In this document: positions 8,901-24,467 of the stretch, piece after piece
Position numbering within the stretch: the stretch's first letter is position 1
How the letters are laid out: every line of letters starts with the position of its first letter
Virus record (IMG/VR): IMGVR_UViG_3300022555_000010
Span: 87,774-151,773 of that record
From: a virus
DNA: 64,000 bases
Strand: one strand, 5' to 3'
The notes under the pieces: model-generated
Seen by the model: the letters and a program-made list of their open reading frames with translations, nothing else
The model's database searches: none
What the model was told of the DNA's origin: nothing
Made by a program: the position numbers and the translations under genes

Positions 8901-9581
8901 GAGATCTCCAGGATTCGTGAGGAGGCTGGACAGGCTCCCAAAGTGGAAATCAAGAAGGAAGAGAAGCCGGCCGTGATTCGATGCAAGGTGACAGTTATCA
9001 CTCCGACTTATAAGCGTGATCCGGCTGTGATTCGTCGGTGTCTGGGAAGCATGTTGATGCAGACGGAGACAGATTGGGAGCAATTCGTGTGTTCTGACGG
9101 TGCCTTGGAAGAACCCGCTCGTGATCTTGTAAATAAGATTGGAGATCCACGGATTCGGTATTTTTACACGGAAGGCAAGAAGGAAGGGGACTACGGGAAC
9201 ACGGTCAGATCGGAGATGATGAAGTATGCCAGGGGGAAATATGTCCTATTCCTTGATGACGACAACCTGATTCTTCCTCATTACCTGGCGACGATGGTAT
9301 CAAAGATGGAGAATTCCCCGGACTGTCAATTCGCAGTTTGCCAGATTATGCATTTTGGTCCATTGAATGAACAGGAAGAGGGGAAGGCTCCAAAAGTGTT
9401 GCTTGGGGACCCGGTAAAGTTGTATCATATTGATCCATTGCAGGTTCTGGTCCACCGGGATATAATGCAAAAGGTTGGTTGGGACACAAAAGTTGGGTAT
9501 TTATCTGATGGAGTGTCATTAGAACGATTAGCGTCCTACAAGCTCGTTCGGGTGAATGAGGTATTGGGGATTCATATGTAA
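5973..9581 (+). CDS. multidomain glycosyltransferase (GT4 plus several GT2 domains), 1202 aa
   Basis: SGG..; EGFGMPPAEAMACG (GT4); VPVYNE...EADE (GT2); FDNGS; ITPTYKR...CSDG...YVLFLDDDN (GT2). Confidence 0.85.
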   Translation: MKVVFVNTVDSDQPSGGAKQAYRHIDVLNQLGIDSCFAHPTPGFRYTWFDNNTPTIHTDDVELTADDFMIFGELVHEVPRVKGWDRCGKVVLCQNDYNALGGFKLDLANTRQTYREAAAILCPSENAVSNIQFIFPSARVMRFKYSFDRAPLEFSAEKESLVAVMPRKRGHEIDAVLAVIGIRWVPPGWNLLRLDNMSEKDVARALKRCAAFLSLGEKEGFGMPPAEAMACGCITVGYTGYGGNEFMLPGISFPVPDGDFIGLSRELMRIFKMPQEERLEIAHKASTFIRATYSTKDEVESIKEAWGKITRPVIDLRSDARSRMRKEVAAYVPVYNEGPYLENILKWLIPRVGEIFVAESIIPWSPNAKAGGESKAIVDKVLAECPESKNVIRYMRVGDQEDKDDPLLREAKQRNSILEKIREYGFKFVWMVEADEFYRDNEAEEMWSWFFDRVTEGARTANCHWHTYWRSIHWRIDPPENFRPNVAFLSDCKFRHGRILEAKDEQMSVEVPDRVCMIRHYSWARTPADVKNKLAAWGHSKELDPDWYEKKFMAWKPGDDMFNVHPTNPESYKMIVRCDLPLPEAMKGHPFIDMEIIEDKNKEVFVMPEVKESVKVRTNRIKVVIMHHNKPENADKLWEQLSPVFDDVEIFDNGSDPGKVPIHTTRSRENVYWTGTWNEVMATCHEYDAVWVIGCDIELMYQPEDYRTAIESSLPFGCWSPCIDGRAHDFMQEKHYGDKHPEEVKNIEGMALAMSGSLMRQIGELVPGSKIGFGQDFWMCYRSRKAGMRNIIDGRVSVHHPEGIGYNEAEAHRQMEETFGRAYGPDFRTTIFEYDQRFEKNIIGETKMPEGKRFTIVTVDNGWGLSEFIRVTSKFPDIRRIVMRKGVIDNIQMPGIEFVEYNEDLKGLVDQADIALFPRVGVANKDDYQKLLKAGVATVVRESCSQGMIEHMKTGWFFRDELWAEHWLAFLMNNPKEISRIREEAGQAPKVEIKKEEKPAVIRCKVTVITPTYKRDPAVIRRCLGSMLMQTETDWEQFVCSDGALEEPARDLVNKIGDPRIRYFYTEGKKEGDYGNTVRSEMMKYARGKYVLFLDDDNLILPHYLATMVSKMENSPDCQFAVCQIMHFGPLNEQEEGKAPKVLLGDPVKLYHIDPLQVLVHRDIMQKVGWDTKVGYLSDGVSLERLASYKLVRVNEVLGIHM

Positions 9582-9594
9582 TACTGGAGGTCTT

Positions 9595-9837
9595 ATGGCA
9601 AAGAAAGAGAAGAAGAGAGTTGTCAATGGACGATTGATCCGAGTCTTCGAGTCCAAGAGACCTAAGTTTACGCATGTGTCGAAGGAATGGGACGCAGTTC
9701 AGGTTGAGGATGTGAATGGACACAATAGTCGTTGTCTGTTGTTTACGGCCGGTGAGATTGCGGAAGCACAAAAGAGGGCTGCGAACAATGTTGAGGAGTT
9801 GACGAAGGAAGGTTTCATAATAGAGATTCTTGAATGA
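9595..9837 (+). CDS. hypothetical protein
   Basis: GGAGG RBS before ATG. Confidence 0.6.
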   Translation: MAKKEKKRVVNGRLIRVFESKRPKFTHVSKEWDAVQVEDVNGHNSRCLLFTAGEIAEAQKRAANNVEELTKEGFIIEILE

Positions 9838-9859
9838 TAGACCTGCATAATTTCTTGTT

Positions 9860-9892
9860 GTGCCAGGTCTGCGAACCTGGCACTTTTGTTTT
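9860..9892 (+). terminator. intrinsic terminator
   Basis: GTGCCAGGT/ACCTGGCAC stem plus TTTTGTTTT. Confidence 0.75.
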
Positions 9893-9893
9893 C

Positions 9894-9922
9894 GGGCCTT
9901 TAGCTCAGATGGTCAGAGCAGG
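9894..9922 (+). pseudogene. 5' fragment of a tRNA (Ile2/Met-CAT-like)
   Basis: GGGCCTT TAGCTCAGATGGTCAGAGC AG: acceptor strand plus D arm, then unrelated AT-rich sequence. Confidence 0.7.
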
Positions 9923-9971
9923 AAATTAAATTATACTTGAGGTCGCTCTTACCAATTGATATGCTGTAAGG

Positions 9972-10457
9972 ATGAAAAGAAATGATGCTTTGTTACCGTA
10001 TGACAATTATTGGATTTACAATCCAGTTGTAAGTGTGTCTTCAGGAAGAAGAGTTTGTGTTTTAGTTTCAAAGAAGGATGGATGTAAGACAAGTATTAGC
10101 TATGCTCGATATTTGATGTCAGTCGCTATCGGAAGAATATTGGATTCAAAAGAGTTTGTAGATCATAAAGATGAAGACAAGTTGAATGATGACATCTTGA
10201 ATTTACAAATATTGTCTCGTGGTGATAATAATCGAAAATATAGAATATGTGCTGGGATAAAGCCTGTTAGATTTAAATTTCGATGTCCCAGTTGTAAGTG
10301 TGTGTTCGAGAAAGATAAAAGACAGTCTCATCTTTCAAAAGGAGGAGTTTTTACGGCATGTTCAAGATCTTGTGCTGGAAAAATTCGGGCAATGATGGGT
10401 CATGGATTTTTTATTGATGTCTCAGGAAATGTAATAGGGGAAATCAAGGACCCGTAG
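9972..10457 (+). CDS. HNH homing endonuclease with C-terminal Zn finger
   Basis: VDHKDEDKLNDDILNLQILSRGDNN; CPSC...CSRSC; TAG stop lies inside the downstream tRNA. Confidence 0.8.
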   Translation: MKRNDALLPYDNYWIYNPVVSVSSGRRVCVLVSKKDGCKTSISYARYLMSVAIGRILDSKEFVDHKDEDKLNDDILNLQILSRGDNNRKYRICAGIKPVRFKFRCPSCKCVFEKDKRQSHLSKGGVFTACSRSCAGKIRAMMGHGFFIDVSGNVIGEIKDP

Positions 10458-10524
10458 CTTAATTGGTCAAAGCAGTTCTCTCATAAGGAATTGAGTCTCA
10501 GTTCGAGTCTGGGCGGGTCCACCA
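10448..10524 (+). tRNA. tRNA with CAT anticodon (probably Ile2)
   Basis: GGACCCG/CGGGTCC acceptor, CT-CAT-AA loop, TTCGAGT, ACCA; resembles bacterial tRNA-Ile2. Confidence 0.85.
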
Positions 10525-10569
10525 ATATGAAAAAAAGAAGAGACGGATAAGACTTGTCCTATTTGCAGG

Positions 10570-10968
10570 ATGATTCTTGGATTCAAACCCGGTCGCGGGG
10601 ACAGATGCCAGGAATGTAAAAACACGGTAGGTGTTGAAGATGCTTATGCCTGGTATAAGATGGAACGTCAGATGGAACTACAGTCGAAGGCTTATGTCTA
10701 CTTGTTTCCAGCATTGATGATTGTGGCGATGTTTGAAAGAATCTATGTTTACAAAGGTGGATACACCTTGAGGTCATTCTTGATTTACGACCTTGTTCCC
10801 TGGGGATTGTGGGTATTCAATGTATTCTTCTTATGGCCTGGGAAAGGGGTAAGTATCCCAGGGATGAAGGATAGATTAAAGAGGGCAAAGGATGATTTGT
10901 TTTTGAAGAAGTTGGGTGGCGAGCCAGTTCGTAAAAAAGGTGATTACGATGGGTTCGGGGAGTTGTGA
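10570..10968 (+). CDS. membrane protein with N-terminal Cys motif (true start possibly 10527 across an A7 run)
   Basis: Two hydrophobic segments; the upstream in-frame sequence encodes CPIC, pairing with CQEC. Confidence 0.55.
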   Translation: MILGFKPGRGDRCQECKNTVGVEDAYAWYKMERQMELQSKAYVYLFPALMIVAMFERIYVYKGGYTLRSFLIYDLVPWGLWVFNVFFLWPGKGVSIPGMKDRLKRAKDDLFLKKLGGEPVRKKGDYDGFGEL

Positions 10969-11000
10969 TACAGAAGGCATTTCAGGCGTTTTTGTATGGT

Positions 11001-11053
11001 AATAAAAATAGTTAAAAGATTTGTTGCATCGCGATTCGCGAATAGCGTATAGT
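11001..11053 (+). promoter_or_regulatory. sigma70-like promoter of the tRNA operon
   Basis: AT-rich UP region 11001-11020, TTGCAT 11024-11029, TATAGT 11048-11053; predicted +1 about 11060. Confidence 0.65.
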
Positions 11054-11059
11054 GAACGC

Positions 11060-11134
11060 ATGAAGACATCGTTGTCATATCTCTATCTGGTGAGTTGCTT
11101 ATTTAATAGCAACTTCCGTAGGGGTATGTCCTGA
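11060..11134 (+). CDS. leader peptide MKTSLSYLYLVSCLFNSNFRRGMS (24 aa, not in ORF track)
   Basis: ATG at predicted +1; 3' end overlaps the antiterminator strand; codons match downstream tRNAs. Confidence 0.75.
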   Translation: MKTSLSYLYLVSCLFNSNFRRGMS

Positions 11135-11200
11135 TCTGACTTCATAAAACAGGATGTAGACAAGCCCCACGGAGAGATCCGGAGGGGCTTTTGTGTTTTT
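11093..11200 (+). promoter_or_regulatory. transcription attenuator (pause hairpin / antiterminator / terminator)
   Basis: AGTTGCT/AGCAACT hairpin 11093-11114; TTCCGT(A)GGGGT 11114-11125 pairs with GCCCCACGGAG 11164-11174; ATGTCCTG/CAGGATGT nested inside; mutually exclusive terminator 11162-11200. Confidence 0.75.
11162..11200 (+). terminator. conditional intrinsic terminator
   Basis: AAGCCCC-A-CGGA-gaga-TCCG-GA-GGGGCTT followed by TTGTGTTTTT. Confidence 0.8.
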
Positions 11201-11277
11201 GGGATTTGGGTTTGTCGTGACAGAATGTCGTGAGAAGTGTCGCGAGATGATATTCGCGAATAGAGAATGAATAGATT

Positions 11278-11354
11278 GGTGGGGTAGCTCAGTCTGGTAG
11301 AGCGTCGGCCTGAAGAGCCGAGCGTCGGGGGTTCAATTCCCTCCCTCACCACCA
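11278..11354 (+). tRNA. tRNA-Phe(GAA)
   Basis: Full cloverleaf, TCGGC-CTGAAGA-GCCGA, CCA end. Confidence 0.95.
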
Positions 11355-11368
11355 AAGTTGAATAGATT

Positions 11369-11454
11369 GCTCGAATGGTGGAATGGCAGACACGTAGCCC
11401 TCAGAAGGCTATGGCCGTAAGGTTGTGGAGGTTCAAGTCCTCTTTCGAGCACCA
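11369..11454 (+). tRNA. tRNA-Leu(CAG)
   Basis: TAGCC-CTCAGAA-GGCTA, long variable arm, CCA. Confidence 0.95.
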
Positions 11455-11533
11455 GTGGATAGGGTGGAATTCCCTCGTGGGTCCGAATCCCACTCCGAGC
11501 AATCGGATGGCTGAGTGGTTTAAGGCAATCCAC
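11455..11533 (+). ncRNA. circularly permuted tRNA-like RNA (compact, YrlA-like module)
   Basis: Order: GTGGAT, variable arm, T arm GTGGG-TCCGAAT-CCCAC, acceptor TCCGA-GCAA-TCGGA closed by a tetraloop, D arm TGGCTGAGTGGTTTAAGGC, ATCCAC. Confidence 0.7.
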
Positions 11534-11539
11534 AGTTTT

Positions 11540-11576
11540 GGAAGGATGGCAGAGTGGTCTAATGCGGCGGTCTTGA
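11540..11576 (+). pseudogene. 5' half of interrupted tRNA-Ser(TGA)
   Basis: GGAAGGA TGGCAGAGTGGTCTAATGC GGCGGT CTTGA, then breaks. Confidence 0.85.
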
Positions 11577-11644
11577 TTATTGCAATTAAAAGTTGATAAT
11601 TCAACTCTTGTAGAGAGTAGTCAATACTATAAGGGAGAATTATT

Positions 11645-12106
11645 ATGCCAAGCAGGCTGTATTCGAGGGAAGTTCTTGAGCCGGTTGTTATAAATAGCAG
11701 ATCTTTTCGAGATTTGACGATAAGGCTGGGTAAGAAACCACATGGAGGGTTGATAAATCATATAAAAAAGATTGTTGTTGGATTGGGAATAGATTGTTCG
11801 CATTTCAATCGTGGGGCTTGGAATAAGGGAGTGGTTTGGACTGGAAGAAGATCGGCTGAGGAAATTTTTTCGGGAGGAAAGATAGAGCCTGCCTATCGGT
11901 TGAAGAGGGCGTTATTAGAGATAGGTCGTGAGTGGAGTTGCGAGGTTTGTGGAATTAAAGATTGGATGGGGAAAGAAATAGACTTTGAGATTCATCATAT
12001 TGATGGGGACAAAAAGAATAATACAATTGTAAATTTGAGGATTGTTTGTCCTAATTGTCATTCTCAGAGTGGAAATTCAAGATTCAAGGGAAGGAAACAT
12101 GGCTGA
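11645..12106 (+). CDS. HNH endonuclease
   Basis: CEVC...EIHHIDGDKKNNTIVNLRIVCPNCHS; TGA stop inside downstream tRNA. Confidence 0.9.
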   Translation: MPSRLYSREVLEPVVINSRSFRDLTIRLGKKPHGGLINHIKKIVVGLGIDCSHFNRGAWNKGVVWTGRRSAEEIFSGGKIEPAYRLKRALLEIGREWSCEVCGIKDWMGKEIDFEIHHIDGDKKNNTIVNLRIVCPNCHSQSGNSRFKGRKHG

Positions 12107-12181
12107 GTGGTCTAAGGCGGGTGTTTTGAAAACATCAGATGTTAATAGCATCCGTAGGTTCAAATCCTACTGTTTCCGCCA
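12093..12181 (+). tRNA. tRNA-Ser(TGA)
   Basis: GGAAACA/TGTTTCC, GGTGT-TTTGAAA-ACATC, long arm, GCCA. Confidence 0.92.
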
Positions 12182-12182
12182 G

Positions 12183-12237
12183 TTGAAAACCGGAGTACCG
12201 AGAGGTATCGGGGGTTCAAATCCCTCTCCTTCCGCCA
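12183..12237 (+). pseudogene. 3' half of interrupted tRNA-Ser(TGA)
   Basis: TTGAAAACCGG, variable arm, GGGGG-TTCAAAT-CCCTC, TCCTTCC-GCCA, which pairs perfectly with GGAAGGA at 11540. Confidence 0.85.
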
Positions 12238-12239
12238 GT

Positions 12240-12332
12240 TTTTCGAGGATCTTTTCGAGGCATTTAACTCGTTGAGATTCAAATGTTTGTGAGAATTTTC
12301 AGTCAAGATTTCGAGGATCTTTTCGAGGATCT
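12240..12332 (+). repeat. four copies of TTTCGAGG(ATC), in two tandem pairs
   Basis: Copies at about 12241, 12253, 12309 and 12321. Confidence 0.7.
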
Positions 12333-12438
12333 GATTGAAGACCTTATCCCTGGTGGATATTGTAATGGCAAATTGACAACTGAATAGTGAATAGCAAGGC
12401 GGCTGATCCGGGTTCTTGTACCGGGTCAGTCGTTGTAT

Positions 12439-12515
12439 GGGCGATTAGCTCAATTGGTCAGAGCGTCTGGTTTACACCCAGAAGGTTATCGGTTCGACCC
12501 CGGTATTGCCCACCA
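12439..12515 (+). tRNA. tRNA-Val(TAC)
   Basis: TCTGG-TTTACAC-CCAGA, CCA. Confidence 0.92.
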
Positions 12516-12525
12516 TTTTTTTTAT

Positions 12526-12564
12526 TTCCGTATTCTGGGGAAGTTATGGCAATGTGTAGGTATG
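12526..12564 (+). promoter_or_regulatory. bipartite phage promoter motif, copy 4
   Basis: TTCCGTATT-N14-GCAATG-TGTAGGT-ATG. Confidence 0.75.
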
Positions 12565-12843
12565 AACTACTACGATGAAATGAATAAAGTGCCGGAACAT
12601 CTCAAGGGGATTGCTGATGTCGTTAAGACACACACCCATCGAGATGTAAATGAGAAAGAGGCGTCCGAGATTGCCTTCGCACTCTTAGAGCTTGAAGGGA
12701 ATAAAGTCATAATCAAAAAGATTGCGGATTACATTCAGAGTCAGAATCAGCAGTTGCGATGGGCTTACGAGAGACACAACAAGTTCGCCGATGATGTTTT
12801 TCAATGGGTTCGCTGGGCGGCTAATTGGACATTGAGGAAATAA
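12562..12843 (+). CDS. hypothetical protein
   Basis: Starts at the motif ATG; the longer track start overlaps tRNA-Val. Confidence 0.65.
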   Translation: MNYYDEMNKVPEHLKGIADVVKTHTHRDVNEKEASEIAFALLELEGNKVIIKKIADYIQSQNQQLRWAYERHNKFADDVFQWVRWAANWTLRK

Positions 12844-12852
12844 GGGAAATAT

Positions 12853-13299
12853 ATGGCACACAAACGCAAAGACACTTTGACGAAGTCTCCGGACTGGTGG
12901 AGACATCTTCGGCCTTTCAACAAACGGAAGGTGGCCAAGGCGGAACGTCGTGCAGCCAGGGCGGAAATCACGGAAGAGGACTATGAGGATGCCAAGGGGC
13001 TTGGTCTTCACAAAGAGCCATCGAAGATGAGATGGTTGAGGGAGACGGATGGGGATTCGATTATTCCCCAGGGTTGTTACTGTTACGATCAGAAGGGAAT
13101 TTGTCCTTACTGGGACAAGGCGGAGAATAAACAGGAACAGAATAACGGGTATTGCTGGTTTCAGATGAGCGGGGATTGGGACGAGAAGGGCTGTGATCTT
13201 CTTTGGGATCAGTGTAAAAACTGCGGGAAGAACGATGTTGATGTTCCCGAGGGTATAATACAGGTGATAGCAGAGAAAGATGAGGAACCAAAATGTTAG
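12853..13299 (+). CDS. hypothetical Cys-rich protein
   Basis: ORF with CYCY, CPYW and CKNC. Confidence 0.6.
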   Translation: MAHKRKDTLTKSPDWWRHLRPFNKRKVAKAERRAARAEITEEDYEDAKGLGLHKEPSKMRWLRETDGDSIIPQGCYCYDQKGICPYWDKAENKQEQNNGYCWFQMSGDWDEKGCDLLWDQCKNCGKNDVDVPEGIIQVIAEKDEEPKC

Positions 13300-13568
13300 A
13301 AGTTGATTTAAGGAATGCTTTTGAGCCGGGGAGTAATGCTGACAATTTCTCGGTGTTGTTGCTTCGGTTGATTGCCAAGGCAGACGGGGACAACAAACTG
13401 AAGTTAAGTTTGGGTTATCCTGTTCATGTGAAGGCAGTTTGGATTTATCAGAATCAGTGTCCGTATCGGGATATGAATCGGAGTGTGGTTGACTGGGCGG
13501 CAATCGCAACCCAGGCTTCCGAAGGAAAGGATTGTGATGAATGTCAAAATCATTTGGAGAGGCTTTAA
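13293..13568 (+). CDS. hypothetical protein
   Basis: GAGG RBS; LIAKADGDNKLKL..GYP. Confidence 0.6.
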   Translation: MLEVDLRNAFEPGSNADNFSVLLLRLIAKADGDNKLKLSLGYPVHVKAVWIYQNQCPYRDMNRSVVDWAAIATQASEGKDCDECQNHLERL

Positions 13569-13894
13569 GCCAGGGCATCCCGATAGTGTTGCTTCGTAAG
13601 GGTGATTGTCCGGAGGTTATTGGTGAGCCGGGGAAGGAACCAGAGGCTTTGGATACTTTGGATAAGATGAAGATAGTGAAGTTGACACGACCCCAGGATG
13701 GTCGAAAACCGAAGGGTGCGATACAGAATTTCTCCGAGAAGCCGGTTCTGACAGATGAGGAACTTCTGGAAGAGTATGGTTGGGAGATGGAATGCTTGAG
13801 TCCGTTTGAGTTGAGGCATAAGGATGGGTCATTCTTATGCGGGAATCAGGCGAAAGATCTATTGAGGCAGTATCGAGAGGATGAGAAGAAATGA
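13541..13894 (+). CDS. hypothetical protein
   Basis: Overlapping ORF in operon. Confidence 0.5.
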   Translation: MSKSFGEALSQGIPIVLLRKGDCPEVIGEPGKEPEALDTLDKMKIVKLTRPQDGRKPKGAIQNFSEKPVLTDEELLEEYGWEMECLSPFELRHKDGSFLCGNQAKDLLRQYREDEKK

Positions 13895-13896
13895 TT

Positions 13897-13932
13897 CCCC
13901 GCATGGTGAAATTGGCAGACACAACGGACTTA
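13897..13932 (+). pseudogene. 5' half of tRNA-Leu (TAR anticodon, probably TAA)
   Basis: CCCCGCA TGGTGAAATTGGCAGACAC A ACGGA CTTA, then breaks. Confidence 0.8.
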
Positions 13933-13992
13933 CAATGCAGTGATGTCTTAATTATTATTTTATAATTCTTATCATAGTAGGGAGATACTACT

Positions 13993-14553
13993 ATGAAAAA
14001 GACTGATAATGAGATACGTGAGGCGGTTGTTGGATCTATTACGTATGCCGGGATTTTGATTAAATTAGGTCTTGTCCCAATGGGGGGAAATTACAAGACA
14101 ATAAAGAGAAGAATACGAATTCTTGGTATTTCGACAGAACATCTTAAGGGGAAGTCATGGAATCGGGGAGGAGTTGGAAAACGAAGTTATGCGAAGAAGT
14201 CCTTGGAGAGTGTAATGATAGAAGATTCTTCGTATTCGACTTTTAAACTCAAGAAGAGATTGTTCAGAGAGGGAATTTTTAAGAAAAAATGCAACAAGTG
14301 TGGAGGAGAACAGTGGCTGGGAAAGCCAATGCCATTAGAATTAGAACATAAAAATGGGAATAGTCACGATCACAGGATAGAGAATTTAGAGATACTTTGT
14401 CCCAACTGTCATTCTTTTACGGATACATATCGAGGTCGGAAGTCTCGTGGGAAAAAGATTATGAAGGAAGAACGACGATGTTCTAACTGTAATGGTCGGG
14501 TGTCGTTAGGGTCGAAATCTGGATTGTGCTATTTATGTTCTCCAAAGTTTTGA
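13993..14553 (+). CDS. HNH endonuclease (paralog of 11645-12106)
   Basis: CNKC...LELEHKNGNSHDHRIENLEILCPNCHS; C-terminal CxxC..CxxC. Confidence 0.9.
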   Translation: MKKTDNEIREAVVGSITYAGILIKLGLVPMGGNYKTIKRRIRILGISTEHLKGKSWNRGGVGKRSYAKKSLESVMIEDSSYSTFKLKKRLFREGIFKKKCNKCGGEQWLGKPMPLELEHKNGNSHDHRIENLEILCPNCHSFTDTYRGRKSRGKKIMKEERRCSNCNGRVSLGSKSGLCYLCSPKF

Positions 14554-14557
14554 AAAT

Positions 14558-14634
14558 GCCGGAGTGGTCCAATTGGCAGAGGCAACAGTTTTAAAAATTG
14601 TGTGTTGCGGGTTCGACTCCCGCCTTCGGCACCA
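14558..14634 (+). tRNA. tRNA with TAA anticodon (Leu) and short variable loop
   Basis: GCCGGAG/CTTCGGC, ACAGT-TTTAAAA-ATTGT, 5-nt variable region, ACCA; 77 nt. Confidence 0.85.
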
Positions 14635-14764
14635 AGGAGAAACAAGATGACGGACGAGGAGATCGGACGGAGGTTGTTGAATATTGACGCCATTGCATAT
14701 TCTCAATGGAGTTATTTGACAAGAACTTTGGGATGTATTGTGGTTGATGACGAAAGAGACTTTT

Positions 14765-15223
14765 ATGAAATTCAAGATACCGTGTGAGTGGACGGTGAGG
14801 ACGGTCGAGGTGATCGAAGCCAAAAATTTGGTAGATGCACAAGATAAGGCTTTCAAGTTGACTCGACCAAAGACATTGGAAGGCTGCAAGATTGAAGATC
14901 CTATTGGTGGGGGTCTGGATTGGAAGACATTCAACAAGATGTATCCACCAAAGCCTCCGGCTGATCCGATGGAGGGTTGGACAAGGACAACTGATCCTGG
15001 GCCGTATCAGGGCGGGCAATGGGTGAAGGAGGCGAATGGGTGTGAGGTATTTGTCACCGGGGATACTGGGCCGATAGAGGTCGGGATGGGAATGACAACC
15101 TATTCGTGGAGTGTGTCGAAGCCTGGTCGTAATGACACTCTAACCTCGAAGAAGGATTTCGATAGGATTGAAGAAGCTCGTGATGCGGCATTGAAGGCAT
15201 CGGAACGATGGAGTAAGATGTGA
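14765..15223 (+). CDS. hypothetical protein
   Basis: ORF in operon. Confidence 0.55.
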   Translation: MKFKIPCEWTVRTVEVIEAKNLVDAQDKAFKLTRPKTLEGCKIEDPIGGGLDWKTFNKMYPPKPPADPMEGWTRTTDPGPYQGGQWVKEANGCEVFVTGDTGPIEVGMGMTTYSWSVSKPGRNDTLTSKKDFDRIEEARDAALKASERWSKM

Positions 15224-15396
15224 AGCCTGAAGTGATTAAGGGGATCAGGAAGCAGTCTGGGATGACTCAGACGGAGTTTGCAAAGGCGATGAGAGTATCA
15301 TTCGCGACTGTAAACAGATGGGAGAAAGGACATTTTGTTCCACTCCCGGACAGACTGGATCGTTTGAAAGAGTTTAAACAAGGAATCGTGAAATGA
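15220..15396 (+). CDS. XRE-family helix-turn-helix regulator (58 aa, not in ORF track)
   Basis: IKGIRKQSGMTQTEFAKAMRVSFATVNRWEKG; GTGA and ATGA coupling to neighbours. Confidence 0.85.
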   Translation: MKPEVIKGIRKQSGMTQTEFAKAMRVSFATVNRWEKGHFVPLPDRLDRLKEFKQGIVK

Positions 15397-15764
15397 AAAA
15401 CAGGTTTGCGGAGATCGCGGAGAGAGTGGCGGCTAAGTATCAAGACATTGGTCATCAGCCTGGAGATAGACTCTGGTGGGTTGGCAATGATGGTAAGGTC
15501 AAGACCTTGGTGTCAACTGGTAAGGAGTTCCACCACGATATTGACGAGAATATCGATATGGATGCTCGGTGGCGTGGCCGTTTGGAAAAGGGTGGTATGT
15601 GTACTCTGTTACCACCGGTGCATCTGTATGCGAAGTTCAAGGATGTGGAGGATATGCCTCTCCCGGATTCAGCGATGACGAAGTTGGAGAAACTGGGAGC
15701 GAAGCACTTCTATCTGGATACTCAGCGGGGTATGAATCGGATCAGTAAGACGGTTGTCCGGTGA
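15393..15764 (+). CDS. hypothetical protein
   Basis: ATGA-coupled; N-terminal RFAEIAERVAA. Confidence 0.6.
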   Translation: MKNRFAEIAERVAAKYQDIGHQPGDRLWWVGNDGKVKTLVSTGKEFHHDIDENIDMDARWRGRLEKGGMCTLLPPVHLYAKFKDVEDMPLPDSAMTKLEKLGAKHFYLDTQRGMNRISKTVVR

Positions 15765-15776
15765 ACTGGAGATTTT

Positions 15777-15812
15777 GGAAGAATGCCGTAACTGGTAGCG
15801 GGTCTGATTCGA
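15777..15812 (+). pseudogene. 5' half of tRNA-Ser(CGA)
   Basis: GGAAGAA TG CCGT AACTGGTA GCGG G TCTGA TTCGA, then AT-rich sequence. Confidence 0.8.
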
Positions 15813-15857
15813 TTGTAATAATTGTTTGATATTTGCACCTAAAGTGGAGGTGCGAAT

Positions 15858-16706
15858 ATGAATAAGTGCAGATTTTGTGGAAAAGGCGGATTTGAAAAGC
15901 GGGGACTTCGAGAACACGAGAAGTATTGTCGGATAGTTCATCGTTATGTTGATATTGCGAAGGAAGAACTGGAAACAGGATTGTTGCTATGTGAGACGGG
16001 ATGTGGTCTGCCAGCCAGATTTACATTGAAAGTTGGAAAGGTTTGTTGTTCTGAGTTTGTTCAGTCTTGCCCGGAGACAAAACGAAAAAACAGCCTTTCA
16101 AAGAGTGGTGAGCATAATCCAAGAGGCATGTTGGGTAAAAAGACCGGAAGACTCGGAAGGAAGAATGTGGATGTCTTTGGTGTTGTCGTGGCAGGTCGAA
16201 TAAGTAAAAAGATTTCCAATAGGTTGACTGGTAAAGTTACAGGGATGGCATCAACAGTTGGAAATGAGATTGAGAGAGTTCGTAAGATTTCTGATGCGGC
16301 AAAAAAGAATACTTACGGAAATTATGGAGGATACAAGAGGGGAGCAGGAAGAGGGAGACACGGATGGTATAAAGGTATCTGGTTTGACTCTTCCTGGGAA
16401 TTAGCGTGGATCATATTCAATATTGATCACGGGATTCAGTTTGAGAGAAATAGTGATAGGTTTGAATATCAATGGGATGGAAAGACTCATAAGTATCTTC
16501 CAGACTTCAAAATGGCTGATGGGAAGTATGTAGAAGTTAAATCGTGGTTGAATGACAAGGTGGTTGCAAAATTAAAGGCGTGTCCAGGAGTTCTTGTTTT
16601 AATGAAGAAGGAGATGGAGCCGTTTATTCAGTATGCAATTAGAAAATATGGTAAAGACTTTGTTAAGGATTTTGAGATTAAAAGGAAGAATGTCCGAACT
16701 GGATAA
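15858..16706 (+). CDS. PD-(D/E)XK endonuclease (TnsA-N-like) with Zn-finger N-terminus
   Basis: DSSWELAW...YLPDF...YVEVKSW; CRFC..H..C; TAA stop inside downstream tRNA. Confidence 0.8.
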   Translation: MNKCRFCGKGGFEKRGLREHEKYCRIVHRYVDIAKEELETGLLLCETGCGLPARFTLKVGKVCCSEFVQSCPETKRKNSLSKSGEHNPRGMLGKKTGRLGRKNVDVFGVVVAGRISKKISNRLTGKVTGMASTVGNEIERVRKISDAAKKNTYGNYGGYKRGAGRGRHGWYKGIWFDSSWELAWIIFNIDHGIQFERNSDRFEYQWDGKTHKYLPDFKMADGKYVEVKSWLNDKVVAKLKACPGVLVLMKKEMEPFIQYAIRKYGKDFVKDFEIKRKNVRTG

Positions 16707-16771
16707 GGAGTCTGCCTCGAAAGCAGATGTACCGAAAGGTATTGGGGGTTCGAGTCCCTCTTCTTCCGCCA
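16684..16771 (+). tRNA. tRNA-Ser(CGA)
   Basis: TCTGC-CTCGAAA-GCAGA, long arm, GCCA. Confidence 0.92.
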
Positions 16772-16974
16772 CACCGAGTGAGATTGTTTATATCAGTAAG
16801 GGAGTTTTGTTGAAGGAGATGGCGGATCTGGGCATCAATATCAACAGTGTTACGGCTGATGGGATAGTGAGTTCGGCAAAGATGGTGATTGTTGATGGGA
16901 TTGTGGTGAAGAATCGGGATGGTAAGACCGGGGCGAATGTCTCGGGAACGATAGTGGTCGATGATGAGAAAGAT

Positions 16975-17049
16975 TGGCGAGTAGCTCAATGGTAGAGTAT
17001 CCGGCTGTTAACCGGGTTGTTGGAGGTTCAAGTCCTCTCTCGCCAGCCA
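16975..17049 (+). tRNA. tRNA-Asn(GTT)
   Basis: TCCGG-CTGTTAA-CCGGG, GCCA. Confidence 0.92.
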
Positions 17050-17055
17050 AATATT

Positions 17056-17379
17056 ATGAAACAAGAACTGATAGATCTATGGCAGCAGATGGCCGATCTG
17101 ACAAAGGAAAAGTGTCAGAAGTCCTGTAGGAATATGGGAGCATGTTGCAGTGGAGAATACTGTGAACTCGCCGCCGAGACGATGGAGAAGGCCGGTGAGA
17201 AGGTTCCCCCGATGCCTTTCGTAGTGGACGGGAAGTGTTCTATTCCTCCTCATTACAGGCCGATATGTGCATTACATCAGTGTGATATTGGCAGTCTTGG
17301 GTTTATGAAGGGGGACCCGGACTTGACAAAGAGATATTTTGATTTGAGATTCAAGTTGGAAGACTTGGCAGAATTTTAA
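17056..17379 (+). CDS. Cys-rich hypothetical protein
   Basis: CQKSC..GACC..YC...C...RPICALH. Confidence 0.6.
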   Translation: MKQELIDLWQQMADLTKEKCQKSCRNMGACCSGEYCELAAETMEKAGEKVPPMPFVVDGKCSIPPHYRPICALHQCDIGSLGFMKGDPDLTKRYFDLRFKLEDLAEF

Positions 17380-17542
17380 TTCCGATAGTACCTTCAGCAA
17401 TGGGATACTTCTAAAAAAACAGGTGCCCGAAAGGGCGTGAAGGTTCGAGTCCTTCCTCTGTGGCTAATAACTGCGGAGTGGTGGAATTGGCAGACACGCC
17501 TGCAAAAAAAGACCCATTGTGATTTTCGGTATTGTAGGAATT
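17378..17542 (+). ncRNA. YrlA/Y-RNA-like ncRNA: long bulged terminal stem plus permuted tRNA-Leu-like module
   Basis: AATTCCGATAGTACC/GGTATTGTAGGAATT and TCA(G)CAATGGG/CCCATTGTGA stems; A7 linkers; module 17420-17502 runs variable arm, T arm, loop-closed acceptor, D arm. Confidence 0.75.
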
Positions 17543-17546
17543 TTAT

Positions 17547-17582
17547 TTCCGTATTGAGACAAGACATCTGCAATGTATGTGC
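17547..17582 (+). promoter_or_regulatory. bipartite phage promoter motif, copy 5
   Basis: TTCCGTATT-N14-GCAATGTATG; here followed by an AGGAG RBS rather than an immediate ATG. Confidence 0.7.
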
Positions 17583-17598
17583 ATTAGGAGATGAGATT

Positions 17599-17817
17599 AT
17601 GTTGGGACTTAAAAAGAGGGCTGAGGATCGTAAACTGGAAAATGATCTATACTTATCTCGTCGTGGGTATGATTACGCGGCCGGGAGATTGTTACGAGGT
17701 GGGAATGTCAAGAATCTCTATGAGGAGGCGGCGAGATGTGATGATCATAGAGAGCCTTTTACGATTGGGGTTTGTGATGCAGTCAGGGACTGGGAGAAGA
17801 AAGGGAAAGTGGGATGA
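17599..17817 (+). CDS. small hypothetical protein, paralog of 19711-19926
   Basis: MLGLKKRAE...RRGYD..AG.LLRG...A(V/I)RDW shared with 19711. Confidence 0.65.
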   Translation: MLGLKKRAEDRKLENDLYLSRRGYDYAAGRLLRGGNVKNLYEEAARCDDHREPFTIGVCDAVRDWEKKGKVG

Positions 17818-18563
17818 AAGTGTTTTTAACGAGTGGGGGAACAAAGACCCCGATAGACAGTGTCAGGCACGTAGGGAATATGTCAAAGGGGACATTTGGT
17901 TGTCATCTCTGTAATGCCTTTTTGAAAATGGGGCATACGGTTCACTATTTTTACGCCAAGGACAGTAAGGCACCTCACGATTTCAGGCTGAATCTCAAAG
18001 AGGTTGGTTCGAGAGAAGCGATGGAGACATTATTGGAGAGCTATGATTTCCTCGATGATTTTGGGGATCGATACATACCAATGGAATATTCTGATTTCAA
18101 CTCCTATGCAGAAGGTCTGAAAAAGATGCTTGGTTCTGGTTTGTTTGATTTGCCGGATGTTGTGGTTTTAGCGGCGGCAGTAAGTGATTATGCCCCGGTA
18201 AAGCACGAAGGCAAGATCAGTTCGGATCTGGATAAGATGGTCATCGAGTTCGAGAAGACTCCGAAGTTGATCAGGCAGATTCGGGATTTCTGTCCGAAAA
18301 CATTCCTGGTGGGGTTCAAGTTGCTTGTTGGAAGCACCCAGGACGAGTTGCTGGAGGCGATGAAGAAGCAGATGAAAGTTGCGAAGACGGATATGGTTGT
18401 CGGGAATGACCTGAGGGATATCCGGGCGGACAAACATTCGTTGACTATTTTGAGGGCAGACGGGGGAATCTCCGGGTTCTCTGGGATGTCGGGTGATAAA
18501 TTGGCGGAATATCTTGTGGGATCTATTGATATCTTACAGGGAAGAAAGAAACGGTTGGCATGA
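17814..18563 (+). CDS. coaB: phosphopantothenate--cysteine ligase
   Basis: TSGGTKTPIDSVRHVGNMSKGTFG, AAAVSDY, KISS, LVGFKLL, VVGND. Confidence 0.9.
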   Translation: MKVFLTSGGTKTPIDSVRHVGNMSKGTFGCHLCNAFLKMGHTVHYFYAKDSKAPHDFRLNLKEVGSREAMETLLESYDFLDDFGDRYIPMEYSDFNSYAEGLKKMLGSGLFDLPDVVVLAAAVSDYAPVKHEGKISSDLDKMVIEFEKTPKLIRQIRDFCPKTFLVGFKLLVGSTQDELLEAMKKQMKVAKTDMVVGNDLRDIRADKHSLTILRADGGISGFSGMSGDKLAEYLVGSIDILQGRKKRLA

Positions 18564-19708
18564 ATATTTTACTTGGATTGACAGGAAGTGTGGCGACAAA
18601 GATTGCCCCGAAGATCATTGAGGCTTTGGAGGCGATTCCGAATTGTTCTGAGGTCAGGGTGATAATGACTGACAAGGCGGCAATGTTTTACAACCCGGAG
18701 GCATTGGCCAGGGTTTCAGGGGTCAAGGTCTACACGGAGGGAGACGAGTGGACCTGGCGGAAGGAAATCAAGGCGATCGGTCATGCTACGGTTCAATGTC
18801 TTGCAACAGACAAATGGGAAAAGGGACTACCCATTCAGCATATTGAGTTGGTGAAGTGGGCTTCTTGTCTGGTGATTGCTCCGGCGACGGCGAACACGAT
18901 TGGGAAGATGGCCAATGGGCTGTGTGACAATCTGCTGACTTCGGTGTTTACGGCCTGGGATCGGAATCGGCCGGTGATTATGGCACCGGCGATGAACACC
19001 ATGATGTTACATTCGCCTGCGGTAGTTCATAATATGGAGACGTTGCAGAAGATGGGTGTTCTGATGGTGCCGACAGTCAAGAAGGAATTGGCTTGTGGGG
19101 ACACAGGAGATGGGGCCTTGGCAGATGCCTCGGATATTGCTCGGGTGGCCGCCAGGGAGATTCAGTGGCTATTTCCGTTCAATCTGGTGTCACCGATCAG
19201 GGGAATCCCGGTTGGGAGTCACCCAGGAGCCTTTGGAGCAATGAGGAAGCATGACAGACATTGTGGAGTGGACTTGTATTGCAACAATGGGACGCCGGTT
19301 GTTTTGGTTGAAGATGGCCGGGTGGTAAGCATTGAACCATTCACCGGGAAAGATGCTGGATGTCCTTGGTGGCTGGATACGAAGGTTGTGAAGGTGGAAG
19401 GGGCCAGTGGGGTCGTTTGTTACGGAGAGATTGAGCCTCGGGACTATGTTCAGGTTGGAAAGGTGTATCGGAAGGGGTGTCAGATTGGGAATGTGATCCC
19501 GGTGTTGAAGCCGGAGAAGCATCGTCCGGATATCCCTGGGCATTCGTGTTGTATGCTTCATCTTCAGATGTTCAGTCACGGGACATATAATCTGAAGGAT
19601 GAGTTCAACAGTCACGAAGAATTGCCGGACTATATCATTGATCCGACACCGTATCTGTTGGGGGCGGTTGGGGCAAAGGATATTAAGAAGTTGGATGTGA
19701 AGGTGTAA
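18560..19708 (+). CDS. coaC: phosphopantothenoylcysteine decarboxylase fused to an M23-peptidase-like domain
   Basis: LTGSVA, HIEL, PATANTIGKMANGLCDNL, PAMN, LACGDTGDG; C-terminal HCGVDL..GTPV..DGRV...LHLQ. Confidence 0.85.
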   Translation: MNILLGLTGSVATKIAPKIIEALEAIPNCSEVRVIMTDKAAMFYNPEALARVSGVKVYTEGDEWTWRKEIKAIGHATVQCLATDKWEKGLPIQHIELVKWASCLVIAPATANTIGKMANGLCDNLLTSVFTAWDRNRPVIMAPAMNTMMLHSPAVVHNMETLQKMGVLMVPTVKKELACGDTGDGALADASDIARVAAREIQWLFPFNLVSPIRGIPVGSHPGAFGAMRKHDRHCGVDLYCNNGTPVVLVEDGRVVSIEPFTGKDAGCPWWLDTKVVKVEGASGVVCYGEIEPRDYVQVGKVYRKGCQIGNVIPVLKPEKHRPDIPGHSCCMLHLQMFSHGTYNLKDEFNSHEELPDYIIDPTPYLLGAVGAKDIKKLDVKV

Positions 19709-19710
19709 CA

Positions 19711-19926
19711 ATGTTTGGATTTAAGAAAAGAGCCGAGGCAAAGAGGCACGAAGAGAACCCGAGTCCTAGGAGGAGAGGATATGATTCTATCGCAGGGGGA
19801 ATATTGAGGGGTTGGAATATTGATTCACACATTGATAATTTTATGTTGGAGGGACCGGGAAGTGTTGAGGATGGCGAGGAAGAGGCGATAAGGGATTGGA
19901 TGAAAATGAGAGGATTTAAACAATGA
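19711..19926 (+). CDS. small hypothetical protein, paralog of 17599-17817
   Basis: MFGFKKRAE...RRGYDSIAGGILRG...AIRDW. Confidence 0.65.
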   Translation: MFGFKKRAEAKRHEENPSPRRRGYDSIAGGILRGWNIDSHIDNFMLEGPGSVEDGEEEAIRDWMKMRGFKQ

Positions 19927-20055
19927 GAAAGTCTACAGCGAGTCCAAAGAGTACGAAGATCAAGAATGGTTGCACTCGGACGAAGAGGAGTTCAGGGTGT
20001 GTCGGGTCGGCAATTGCTCGGACTCGTGAACGAAGGAAGTGTCGGTAAGTATTTT

Positions 20056-20087
20056 GACGGGTTAGCCAAGTGGTTAGGCAGGTCTTG
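20056..20087 (+). pseudogene. 5' fragment of a tRNA (Cys-like)
   Basis: GACGGGT TAGCCAAGTGGTTAGGC AGGTCTTG resembles the 5' half of bacterial tRNA-Cys. Confidence 0.65.
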
Positions 20088-20142
20088 AAAAAGCATTGAC
20101 TTGACAGGCCAGTAATAGCATTATTCAGGGAATGGAGGTGCT

Positions 20143-20856
20143 ATGAAAAAGAACGAAGAAATTAAAATCAAGGCAAGAGATTTGAGGTCGCTCGGATTAT
20201 CTGTTGGAGATATTTCAAAAAAACTTTCAGTCTCTTATGGCTCAGTTGGTAACTGGGTTCGTGACATTATTCTGGACGAAGAACAGAAGAAGAATATCTC
20301 AAATATTCGTCAAAAGGAAGTTCAGCGTGTTTTCGATCTTCCCTTAGAGATTTTTGATAAAATGATTGAAGACGGCTTAAGCCAGAAAATGATTGCTGAT
20401 AAATTGGGAGTATCTTTGGGAATAATGAGTCGAGTGTTCAAATCGAAGGGGCTATCAGGAAGAACGCCTAAAGGTCAGAGACCCGTATTTGGTTTGAGCG
20501 ATTGTAAGATTTGTGGAGTTCCCAGAAAAACATGGCGAGGAGGAACTTGTCCTACTTGTGTGTCGAAAATTAGACGTTTAAAAACGAAGATTAGGGCAGT
20601 AAAGGAGTTGGGTGGGAAATGTAAAAGTTGTTCGTGGGAACCAACAAGTCGTGAGGTTGCGGCGATGGAATTCCATCATAAAGGTGGAGATAAAAAAGAA
20701 TTTGAGATAGGTAAGAAGATGAATCATAAGTGGGAAACTTTACTTCCAGAAATCAGGAAGTGTAAATTGTTGTGTTCTCGATGTCACAGGATTGAGCACA
20801 GTCGAGTAGATCCATTGTTTGATTTTATATTTGATCAAGATGATAAGATGCGATGA
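20143..20856 (+). CDS. HTH + HNH-like endonuclease
   Basis: Two HTH segments; CKIC..CPTC; CKSC...MEFHH...KCKLLCSRCHRIEH; TGA stop inside downstream tRNA. Confidence 0.8.
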   Translation: MKKNEEIKIKARDLRSLGLSVGDISKKLSVSYGSVGNWVRDIILDEEQKKNISNIRQKEVQRVFDLPLEIFDKMIEDGLSQKMIADKLGVSLGIMSRVFKSKGLSGRTPKGQRPVFGLSDCKICGVPRKTWRGGTCPTCVSKIRRLKTKIRAVKELGGKCKSCSWEPTSREVAAMEFHHKGGDKKEFEIGKKMNHKWETLLPEIRKCKLLCSRCHRIEHSRVDPLFDFIFDQDDKMR

Positions 20857-20920
20857 CCGAGAGGTTAGGTGGTTCTCTGCAAAAGAACATAGGCTGGTTC
20901 GAGTCCAGTTCGCATCTCCA
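20847..20920 (+). tRNA. tRNA-Cys(GCA)
   Basis: GTTCT-CTGCAAA-AGAAC, U73 discriminator, CCA. Confidence 0.92.
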
Positions 20921-20929
20921 AAATTTTTC

Positions 20930-21016
20930 GGGGAGTTAGCCAAGCGGCAACGGCGGCAGACTGTAAATCTGTTTCTCTAACGAGGTTCAAAGGTTCGAGT
21001 CCTTTACTCCCCACCA
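20930..21016 (+). tRNA. tRNA-Tyr(GTA)
   Basis: GCAGA-CTGTAAA-TCTGT, long arm, ACCA. Confidence 0.95.
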
Positions 21017-21054
21017 ATTATTAGTGATCAGTAATATATCGGTGAACAGTAATA

Positions 21055-21300
21055 ATGAGCAGAAGGATCAGATACACCAAGCAGAGAGCCTTATTGGGAT
21101 CTTTGATTACAAGGGATGGTCTAAAATGTCACTGGTGTCATAGGGAATGTGACCCGAAGGCTAATAATGGAAGTCCTGGATATCCGACCGTGGAGCATCT
21201 GAAGAGGCAATGTGAGGGTGGAACGGATGACCCGGTGAATCTGGTGGTGGCTTGTTTGAAGTGTAATAGTGGGAGACATTTGCCTGGGTGGACTCCGTGA
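21055..21300 (+). CDS. small HNH endonuclease
   Basis: RDGLKCHWC...TVEHL...GGTDDPVNLVVACLKCNSGR. Confidence 0.85.
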   Translation: MSRRIRYTKQRALLGSLITRDGLKCHWCHRECDPKANNGSPGYPTVEHLKRQCEGGTDDPVNLVVACLKCNSGRHLPGWTP

Positions 21301-22344: not shown

Positions 22345-22354
22345 GGGATAATTT

Positions 22355-24453: not shown

Positions 24454-24467
24454 TTATGAGATAATTT

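Follow-up and report, generated by a model that had tools for sequence, protein, structure and literature searches.

A phage tRNA array with five probable homing-endonuclease cassettes that bring a replacement for the interrupted tRNA gene in place of splicing

How can a homing-endonuclease gene occupy a tRNA gene without a self-splicing intron around it? By the usual view, such enzymes can persist in essential genes only within self-splicing introns or inteins, or else between genes. The question is raised by a stretch of 64,000 nucleotides of phage DNA (here called the window), the final 64 kb of a linear virus record of 151,773 bp (IMG/VR record IMGVR_UViG_3300022555_000010; CheckV completeness, 72%). 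Its tRNA array holds five plus-strand units of one and the same order: a 5' piece of a tRNA gene, an A+T-rich spacer, a nuclease open reading frame (ORF), and an intact tRNA gene of the same isotype. Five such cassettes had been proposed by a sequence-only reading of the window, and all five were recovered. We consider that they are probably free-standing homing-endonuclease cassettes that act by replacing the tRNA gene and not by splicing, each cassette consisting of the spacer, the nuclease gene, and a complete tRNA gene that is fused to or abuts the stop codon. The units measure 0.6 to 1 kb, and all five lie within one 11-kb array, as follows (L001 and L006 are relatives of the window phage, and L098, L099, and L108 are other contigs; all are described below).

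9894-9925, plus strand: remnant 1, the 5' part of the displaced resident tRNA(CAT) (acceptor strand, D arm, and 5' strand of the anticodon stem)
9926-9971, plus strand: spacer 1, 46 nt, 65% A+T, with a ribosome-binding-like site ahead of the ORF
9972-10457, plus strand: nuclease 1, a 161-aa HNH_3 endonuclease (Pfam PF13392, E = 1e-05, above the curated cutoff)
10448-10524, plus strand: carried tRNA(CAT), intact, Met or Ile2 (ARAGORN; Rfam tRNA, 65.2 bits; 10-nt overlap with the ORF)
11540-11576, plus strand: remnant 2a, the 5' half of the resident tRNA-Ser(TGA), whose last bases are the anticodon TGA (by homology)
11577-11644, plus strand: spacer 2, 68 nt, 74% A+T, containing a 23-nt block that is identical in the L001 cassette
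11645-12106, plus strand: nuclease 2, a 153-aa HNH endonuclease of the N2/N3 family (Pfam PF01844 and PF13392, both above the cutoff)
12093-12181, plus strand: carried tRNA-Ser(TGA), intact (ARAGORN and Rfam; 14-nt overlap with the ORF)
12187-12237, plus strand: remnant 2b, the 3' half of the resident tRNA-Ser(TGA) (aligns to the intact L006 gene)
13897-13932, plus strand: remnant 3, the 5' part of the resident long-arm tRNA-Leu(TAA), broken inside the anticodon (by homology)
13933-13992, plus strand: spacer 3, 60 nt, 73% A+T
13993-14553, plus strand: nuclease 3, a 186-aa HNH enzyme and paralogue of nuclease 2 (32% identity, E = 2e-22; Pfam HNH below the cutoff)
14558-14634, plus strand: carried tRNA(TAA), 77 nt (ARAGORN; Rfam, 51.8 bits; starts 4 nt after the ORF end)
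15777-15812, plus strand: remnant 4, the 5' part of a tRNA-Ser(CGA), whose last bases are the anticodon CGA (by homology)
15813-15857, plus strand: spacer 4, 45 nt, 67% A+T, with homology to that of the L098/L099 cassette
15858-16706, plus strand: nuclease 4, 282 aa, Cys-rich in its N-terminal part and with a C-terminal domain that is PD-(D/E)XK-like
16684-16771, plus strand: carried tRNA-Ser(CGA), intact (ARAGORN and Rfam; 23-nt overlap with the ORF)
20056-20086, plus strand: remnant 5, the 5' part of the resident tRNA-Cys, broken just ahead of the anticodon (by homology)
20087-20142, plus strand: spacer 5, 56 nt, 57% A+T, with homology to that of the L108 cassette
20143-20856, plus strand: nuclease 5, 237 aa, with two helix-turn-helix (HTH) regions and a C-terminal HNH domain
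20847-20920, plus strand: carried tRNA-Cys(GCA), intact (ARAGORN and Rfam; 10-nt overlap with the ORF)

Because the Rfam tRNA model is weak for half tRNAs, the 5' pieces were assessed by homology and permutation tests instead, with 3,000 random window segments as the control for significance and 551 tRNAs as the set in which best matches were sought. Every piece starts at tRNA position 1 and breaks off between positions about 31 and 36, and 22 to 31 of its 31 to 37 bases are identical to the 5' half of a same-anticodon tRNA from a relative or from the window. The scores of the pieces were reached by, at best, none of the 3,000 random segments, and for the Cys piece the best p value was about 0.003 to 0.009. 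Remnant 1 is identical to the resident tRNA(CAT) at 28 of 32 positions in L001 and at 26 of 32 in L006 (p ≤ 0.0003), and the alignment departs at the anticodon loop. Remnant 2a shares 31 of 37 bases with the uninterrupted tRNA-Ser(TGA) of L006 and gives a marginal truncated match to the Rfam tRNA model (model positions 1 to 35). Remnant 3 shares 27 of 36 bases with the Leu(TAA) genes of both relatives (p ≤ 0.0003) and, with an nhmmer E value of 9e-4, is the top match of the whole window. Remnant 4 is identical to the carried tRNA-Ser(CGA) at 30 of 36 positions and to the Ser(CGA) gene of L006 at 25 of 36. For remnant 5, 22 of 31 bases agree with the L001 tRNA-Cys (p about 0.009), Cys tRNAs make up five of the eight best matches, and the upstream ORF is the same as for the L001 Cys gene. 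The best matches of pieces 1 to 5 among the 551 tRNAs were of the isotypes expected from the tRNAs downstream, namely, CAT, Ser, Leu, Ser, and Cys. Half-tRNA profiles searched with nhmmer found four of the five remnants at modest E values (9e-4 to 9.5) and missed remnant 1, and the Rfam tRNA model, run on slices cut at the breaks, gave a truncated match for remnant 2 only (15.9 bits, E = 1.6). The best half-tRNA matches in the window lie on the plus strand and, except for one in a permuted tRNA-like element, immediately precede a nuclease.

These comparisons bear out the view of the sequence-only reading that the fragments match the isotype of the tRNA downstream, and they refine several of its other claims. 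That the fragments end in the anticodon arm holds for all five, but pieces 1 and 5 stop at positions about 31 and 33, ahead of the anticodon, and so their isotype rests on homology. The Leu unit was said to carry an intact Leu-TAA tRNA; the gene is intact and its anticodon is TAA, but it is 77 nt long and combines a Leu-type D arm and A73 with a variable loop of just 5 nt. A difference between fragment and carried tRNA, described as general, applies in allele type to sites 1, 3, and 5 and not to piece 4 with its 30 identical bases. Thus, the carried tRNA(CAT) has an acceptor stem of the L006-allele type, unlike remnant 1, and the carried tRNA-Cys(GCA) is like the Cys tRNA of L007, a further relative, and unlike remnant 5. 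In the Ser units, the acceptor and anticodon stems of the carried tRNA-Ser(TGA) are identical to those of the L001 cassette, and the 3' half of the carried tRNA-Ser(CGA) is similar to the resident Ser(CGA) of L006. The AT-rich spacers of 45 to 70 nt were confirmed at 45 to 68 nt and 57 to 74% A+T, versus 54% window-wide, but the promoter-like sequences reported in them fared less well. Consensus matches do occur at 9910-9937, 11573-11600, 11618-11646, 13929-13958, and 20096-20124, but the scan yielded 26 matches versus 18.3 ± 4.2 expected, which is no significant excess, and the spacer matches are leads only.

Three metagenome-derived relatives, syntenic with the window, have uninterrupted tRNA genes where the window has broken ones. 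L001, reached through the closest homologue of nuclease 2, is collinear with the window and has the same tRNA order, and L006 and L007 were reached through a conserved array protein. L006 has no nuclease genes in this stretch, and nothing interrupts its genes for CAT, Ser(TGA), Leu(TAA), and Ser(CGA) tRNAs (sites 1 to 4 empty). Likewise uninterrupted are the CAT, Leu(TAA), Ser(CGA), and Cys genes of L001 (sites 1, 3, 4, and 5 empty) and the Leu(TAA), Ser(CGA), and Cys genes of L007. In the alignments, the window tracks these resident genes as far as the anticodon loop and then diverges into the spacer. The empty alleles that an insertion predicts are therefore present, at the same array positions of otherwise collinear relatives. 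Besides, a contig from a lake metagenome run that also contains the window phage joins 11558 to 12183 with L006-type sequence, giving an uninterrupted Ser(TGA) gene; the lake-run contigs at 85% likeness were mostly unrelated tRNA genes, and use was confined to the joint in X6 and to loose ends at 11576.

Unit 2 is the only one in which both exons are present and foldable. The 5' half named in the earlier reading is the sole remnant in units 1, 3, 4, and 5, which have no 3' exon, but not in unit 2 with its 3' half at 12187-12237. TTGA is found at both junctions of this unit (11573-11576, repeated at 12183-12186), and 11540-11576 and 12187-12237, when rejoined, form a normal 88-nt tRNA-Ser(TGA) according to ARAGORN. 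In L001, a homologue of nuclease 2 (69% identical) stands in the same setting, with its Ser-TGA tRNA and both resident halves kept, and the rejoined halves form a 94-nt tRNA-Ser(TGA). The two pairs of halves differ in acceptor pair 7:66 (A-T in the window versus C-G in L001) and in the whole variable arm, and both pairs fold; the junction repeats also differ (TTGA versus GAA). Amino acid identity is 55% between the window and L001, and their identities to the empty L006 are 61% and 59% (1,070 to 1,970 aligned residues). Since these three genomes are about equidistant, the distribution of cassette 2 does not follow the backbone, and since dead halves would not stay paired over such distances, the data fit separate entries into already diverged live alleles. 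The simplest account would be that cassette 2 separately entered two diverged, working alleles at the same place.

The nucleases, for which at least three architectures had been suggested, proved to be of four unrelated types: HNH_3 (nuclease 1), two paralogous HNH enzymes (nucleases 2 and 3), PD-(D/E)XK-like (nuclease 4), and HTH-HNH (nuclease 5). All five ORFs are open, the HNH histidines with the Asn/Cys motif, or PD...EVK, are visible in the translations, and the unit nucleases have an intact endonuclease domain of a known homing family, putatively so in nuclease 4. Nuclease 5 matched PHROG HNH endonuclease families (E = 3e-17), its Pfam HTH matches being subthreshold. Nuclease 4 matched PHROG endonuclease/resolvase families (E values of 1e-6 to 6e-8) and Pfam Phage_endo_I at an E value of 0.002 and 18.4 bits, under the cutoff of 29.1. 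Its motif, LPDF...YVEVK, includes P215, D216, E226, and K228, which are invariant or nearly so among 11 homologues, and its AlphaFold model has pLDDT values of 78 to 92 at residues 168 to 265. Foldseek with nuclease 4 returned no match at an E value of ≤0.001, the weak top neighbors being mostly PD-(D/E)XK nucleases, and the PDB sequence search returned T7 endonuclease I only (E = 0.18). No GIY-YIG match was obtained for any of the five nucleases in Pfam or PHROG. Because four unrelated nuclease families share the same layout, it appears to be a general strategy and not an accident.

In other contigs, each nuclease recurs together with its tRNA. The spacers are conserved together with each nuclease, and remnants are often alongside; nuclease, spacer, and tRNA are thus inherited together. 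In L107, a homologue of nuclease 1 (62% identical) ends inside a tRNA(CAT) in a different neighborhood. In L099, a 5' piece of a Ser tRNA (GGAAGGA...) precedes a spacer homologous to spacer 4, a homologue of nuclease 4 (49% identical), and a tRNA-Ser(GGA), and L098, whose protein is identical to that of L099, keeps a 3' remnant that pairs with the L099 piece. In L108, a homologue of nuclease 5 (62% identical) follows an L001-type Cys 5' piece and a spacer homologous to spacer 5; after it come a carried Cys tRNA and, further on, the matching 3' remnant. In the unrelated IMG/VR contig L077, the 5' piece of a long-arm Leu tRNA, with GGACTT at its end, is followed by an A+T-rich spacer, an HNH gene of the N2/N3 family, and a 75-nt short-arm tRNA-Leu(TAA), with no 3' exon. 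In L076, the pairing of the 3' acceptor strand of the tRNA behind the HNH gene is perfect with the upstream piece but poor with the 5' strand of the tRNA itself; to judge from its sequence, this tRNA is the product of a crossover inside the gene. The short tRNA with a Leu anticodon is recurrent as well. It is 75 to 77 nt long, with a Leu-type D arm (TAGCCCAAYNGGNAGAGGCA-like), A73, and a 5-nt variable loop, and it often adjoins an HNH gene of the N2/N3 family, as in L077, L033, L054, and the cultured phages mistaenkt and GodonK.

14558-14634 of the window, L077:2950-3024, L054:3414-3490, L009:2946-3021, and L008:2422-2497: short Leu-anticodon tRNA

The N2/N3 family (nucleases 2 and 3 and their relatives) also occurs in introns. 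We fetched 80 IMG/VR loci of this family, of which 70 have tRNAs within 2.5 kb; in 28 of the 80, a tRNA starts at -45 to +60 nt from the ORF end, and 14 of these 28 tRNAs are Leu. In at least eight loci (L012, L014, L018, L026, L035, L050, and L086/87), the ORF lies inside a tRNA-Leu(UAA) gene that is split after U34, with a Leu 5' exon running to U34, a 3' exon starting from AAAA, and an insert that ends in G about 200 nt past the ORF. The two loci tested against Rfam Intron_gpI both matched, L026:2384-3230 with 50.2 bits (E = 1e-11) and L035:2352-3250 with 31.7 bits (E = 5e-6). L054:2175-2364 is an ORF-less insert at the same tRNA-Leu(UAA) position and is followed by a free-standing HNH gene. 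In the window, by contrast, Intron_gpI had no match in 9000-27000 (E ≤ 1), in 11520-12260, or in 13880-14700 (E ≤ 5 for the latter two). The earlier idea that no intron is needed is thus upheld for units 2 and 3, which have no ribozyme, while the same HNH family is intron-borne elsewhere. According to a 2014 review, every phage intron then known lay in a protein gene (PMC3984707), and tRNAs of Lak megaphages were later said to contain introns (PMC8346664). As the N2/N3 family is also found in group I introns at the same tRNA position, the replacement tRNA would do the job of the ribozyme.

We infer from the break positions that the nuclease cuts the matching tRNA gene of a cassette-free phage genome at the anticodon loop or close to it. 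By analogy with intronless homing, repair of the break would copy the cassette from a co-infecting donor. Of the resident gene, a dead 5' piece would stay behind (both halves in one case), and the carried tRNA of the same anticodon would supply its function, so that nothing is lost and a ribozyme is unneeded. The carried tRNA gene would itself resist cutting, and the donor's 5' piece and the sequence downstream may act as homology arms in further homing.

Insertions into tRNA genes are made harmless in other ways by known systems. Integrative elements target att sites in tRNA genes and restore the gene with a carried segment. Here too, the element's own DNA renders the insertion harmless, but integrative elements use a site-specific recombinase, restore only the 3' end, produce a single chimeric gene, and are large islands or prophages, whereas the far smaller window units imply a nuclease plus host or phage recombination and supply the whole gene. 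The insertion point is shared with the group I introns that carry a homing endonuclease in tRNA anticodon loops (I-Ssp6803I in a cyanobacterial tRNA-fMet; the tRNA-Leu(UAA) intron; PMC3984707), as is, presumably, an endonuclease whose specificity is for the region of the anticodon, and the N2/N3 family is found in such phage introns. Unlike those introns, the window units have no ribozyme, four of them are without a 3' exon, and a second gene copy takes the place of splicing. In collaborative or trans homing (mobE/I-TevIII of T4; F-CphI and the psbA intron of S-PM2; PMC2790892, PMC6083498), a free-standing endonuclease likewise targets the interruption site, and the interruption itself protects the donor genome; however, the target is split by an ORF-less intron and yet splices, whereas the window units destroy and replace the target gene. 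L054, with its ORF-less putative intron, adjoining HNH gene, and short tRNA-Leu, looks like a collaborative form of the N2/N3 family.

SegB of phages T4 and T6 cuts tRNA genes and drives the inheritance of itself and neighboring tRNA genes (PMC2330249, PMC13096335), and it drives amplification of tRNA-Tyr against Septu (PMC13096335). The window units resemble SegB and other T-even free-standing homing endonucleases (PMC2330249, PMC13096335, PMC2988022) in having a nuclease gene in a phage tRNA cluster, with tRNA genes as the presumptive target. Further likenesses to SegB are the co-inheritance of the nuclease and adjacent tRNA genes, with presumed exclusion of the tRNA markers of a rival phage, and presence/absence polymorphism among relatives. 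SegB differs, however, in that it is a GIY-YIG enzyme; it recognizes the T-loop region, and in many tRNA genes its cut falls close to the 3' end. Its gene is flanked by intact tRNA genes, and neither a broken resident gene nor an ORF-fused replacement of the same anticodon has been described for it. The window units, in contrast, have HNH and PD-(D/E)XK-like enzymes, breaks in the anticodon loop, and one isotype per cassette. Our literature search found papers on SegB, introns, and phage tRNAs and no description of a nuclease with a same-anticodon tRNA inserted in a tRNA gene. The layout may be regarded as a variant of intronless homing.

Several points weigh against homing by replacement. The break positions of the remnants (about 31 to 36) are the sole source from which the presumed cut site is deduced. 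Four of the five units are without a 3' remnant, and their right junctions could be due to ordinary recombination between diverged arrays. Remnant 4 is nearest to the carried tRNA and could equally be a local duplication of its 5' half. Cassette 2 could represent one ancient gain and one precise loss, the order of gain and loss being unrooted because the three relatives are roughly equidistant. Near-identical strains (L100 to L106; at least 22 contigs from several metagenome studies, with nuclease 5 being 100% identical) carry the same cassettes in every contig with DNA, and no recent presence/absence polymorphism was seen among them within the species. Finally, the CAT tRNA carried in L107 has the anticodon stem-loop of the resident alleles; since its stem matches the residents, resistance, if real, need not reside in that stem.

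Among other explanations, the units could be decayed introns, namely, anticodon-loop group I introns bearing an HNH gene that lost the ribozyme and so killed the host tRNA, for which a tRNA of the same anticodon, either a neighbor or a new acquisition, compensates; mobility may then be gone. The ORFs of the N2/N3 loci listed above lie in introns (putative ones outside L026 and L035) between U34 and A35 of tRNA-Leu(UAA), which is the very position at which remnant 3 breaks, and unit 2 retains both "exons." We regard this origin as unlikely, given that even sensitive searches of small regions revealed no ribozyme remnant in units 2 and 3, that the data examined show no intron-borne relative for three of the four nuclease families, and that the fusion of the tRNA to the ORF stop in the window, L001, L077, L098, L107, and L108 points to a conserved module rather than a chance neighbor. 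As it concerns origin, it could nevertheless hold for units 2 and 3 alongside homing by replacement. It is similarly doubtful that the carried tRNAs spread because they help the phage, through escape from anticodon nucleases or SegB-like amplification, with the remnants as by-products of recombination in its own array. Such a swap would have a parallel in the amplification of the tRNA-Tyr and segB segment against Septu (PMC13096335), and it would fit with carried tRNAs whose anticodon stems are not those of the resident alleles, a carried Leu(TAA) without the long variable arm, and a genome with an RtcB RNA ligase in addition to five Leu and four Ser isoacceptors. However, there are no tandem amplifications in the window, the empty alleles work in the relatives, and no host defense is known for this uncultured phage; moreover, a benefit of this kind is compatible with homing by replacement, to which it would be added rather than opposed.

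We find it very improbable that the interrupted tRNAs, at least Ser-TGA, are live split genes whose insert is cut from the transcript and whose halves are sealed by RtcB. Perfect pairing of the halves has been kept both in the window and in L001, for all their many differences, and RtcB is encoded by the genome, but recent, separate insertions explain the kept pairing. Besides, four of the five units are without any 3' half, an intact isoacceptor is present in every unit, and processing of the embedded tRNA would leave the 5' half with a tail of about 530 nt and the 3' half with 5 extra bases, which are not ligatable ends. Nor do we give much credence to the pieces being scars of illegitimate recombination in a fast-changing array, with nucleases that merely occupy the same gaps. 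The array does vary between relatives (ORFs gained or lost, and Asn duplicated in L001), and there are further tRNA-like pieces at 11455-11533 and 17440-17498, but mere debris would hardly explain why in all five units the remnant agrees in isotype with the tRNA that follows the nuclease and the break falls in the anticodon loop, or why the best half-tRNA matches directly precede nucleases, bar the one in the permuted element. The same pairing also recurs with homologous nucleases in unrelated contigs.

Some further features of the array and its surroundings were recorded. At 10525-10570, 3' of the carried tRNA(CAT), the ATG of the next ORF meets a stop after seven codons, and the same ORF start in L001 and L006 leads into an uninterrupted Cys-x-x-Cys protein; the disturbed start may be the right-hand scar of cassette 1. 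A tRNA-Ser(GGA) at 24848-24935 has the odd D arm and anticodon stem of the tRNA carried in L098/L099 and no adjoining nuclease, and it may be a cassette stripped of its nuclease. The tRNA-like element at 11455-11533, directly after tRNA-Leu(CAG), has its parts permuted, with the variable arm first and then the T arm, an acceptor that a small loop closes, and the D arm; its counterpart in L001 (L001:9777-9870) is of different sequence, and L006 has none. The element at 17440-17498 is similar. A sixth HNH gene, with no adjoining tRNA remnant, lies in a gap that measures 5 nt in L001.

21055-21300, plus strand: HNH gene, 81 aa, between tRNA-Tyr and tRNA-Ser(GCT) (Pfam PF01844, above the cutoff)

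The window phage was traced to freshwater/lake metagenomes (public runs, with no RNA data set listed among them), and nearly all genes of the window are on the plus strand. ARAGORN predicted 16 tRNA genes at 9.8 to 25.9 kb, including five of the Leu isoacceptors (AAG is missing), four of the Ser isoacceptors (ACT is missing), and Tyr. An RtcB-type RNA ligase is encoded in the same genome outside the window (G000:C1:1107-2522; PF01139, 161.6 bits), and together with the five Leu, four Ser, and Tyr tRNA genes it looks like a kit for surviving host tRNA-cutting enzymes. A search for the RNA ligase family PF09414 gave no match, nor did one for PF09511, whose controls were silent too. Against cultured phages, megablast of 9500-21700 gave a tRNA-sized match of 63 nt only, and tblastn with a 508-aa structural protein gave none; by these comparisons, the window phage is without a cultured relative in the phage collection searched. 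Scans of IMG/VR with a 1202-aa neighbor, nuclease 1, and nuclease 5 retrieved no relatives. L005 is a relative of the window phage but has no tRNAs.

Beyond this array, we tentatively propose that such "split-and-replace" cassettes may form a distinct and widespread class of mobile elements, on which several nuclease families converged and one of which alternates with group I introns of tRNA-Leu(UAA). If this is true, carrying a spare gene copy would join introns and inteins as a third means by which a homing endonuclease can occupy an indispensable gene; harmlessness is reached differently here, by bringing the replacement gene along. With its two forms, the N2/N3 family would provide a natural series for asking how mobile introns come about or break down. 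The enzymes, which are small and probably recognize 20 to 30 bp of a tRNA gene specifically, could be useful tools if their sites were mapped. For the phages themselves, the cassettes would drive the turnover of tRNA sets and spread noncanonical tRNAs, such as the 75- to 77-nt short-arm tRNA-Leu. This would explain the tRNA pieces and odd tRNAs in phage arrays, as well as the fast turnover of tRNA alleles between related phages, which bears on how phages cope with host tRNA-cutting enzymes.

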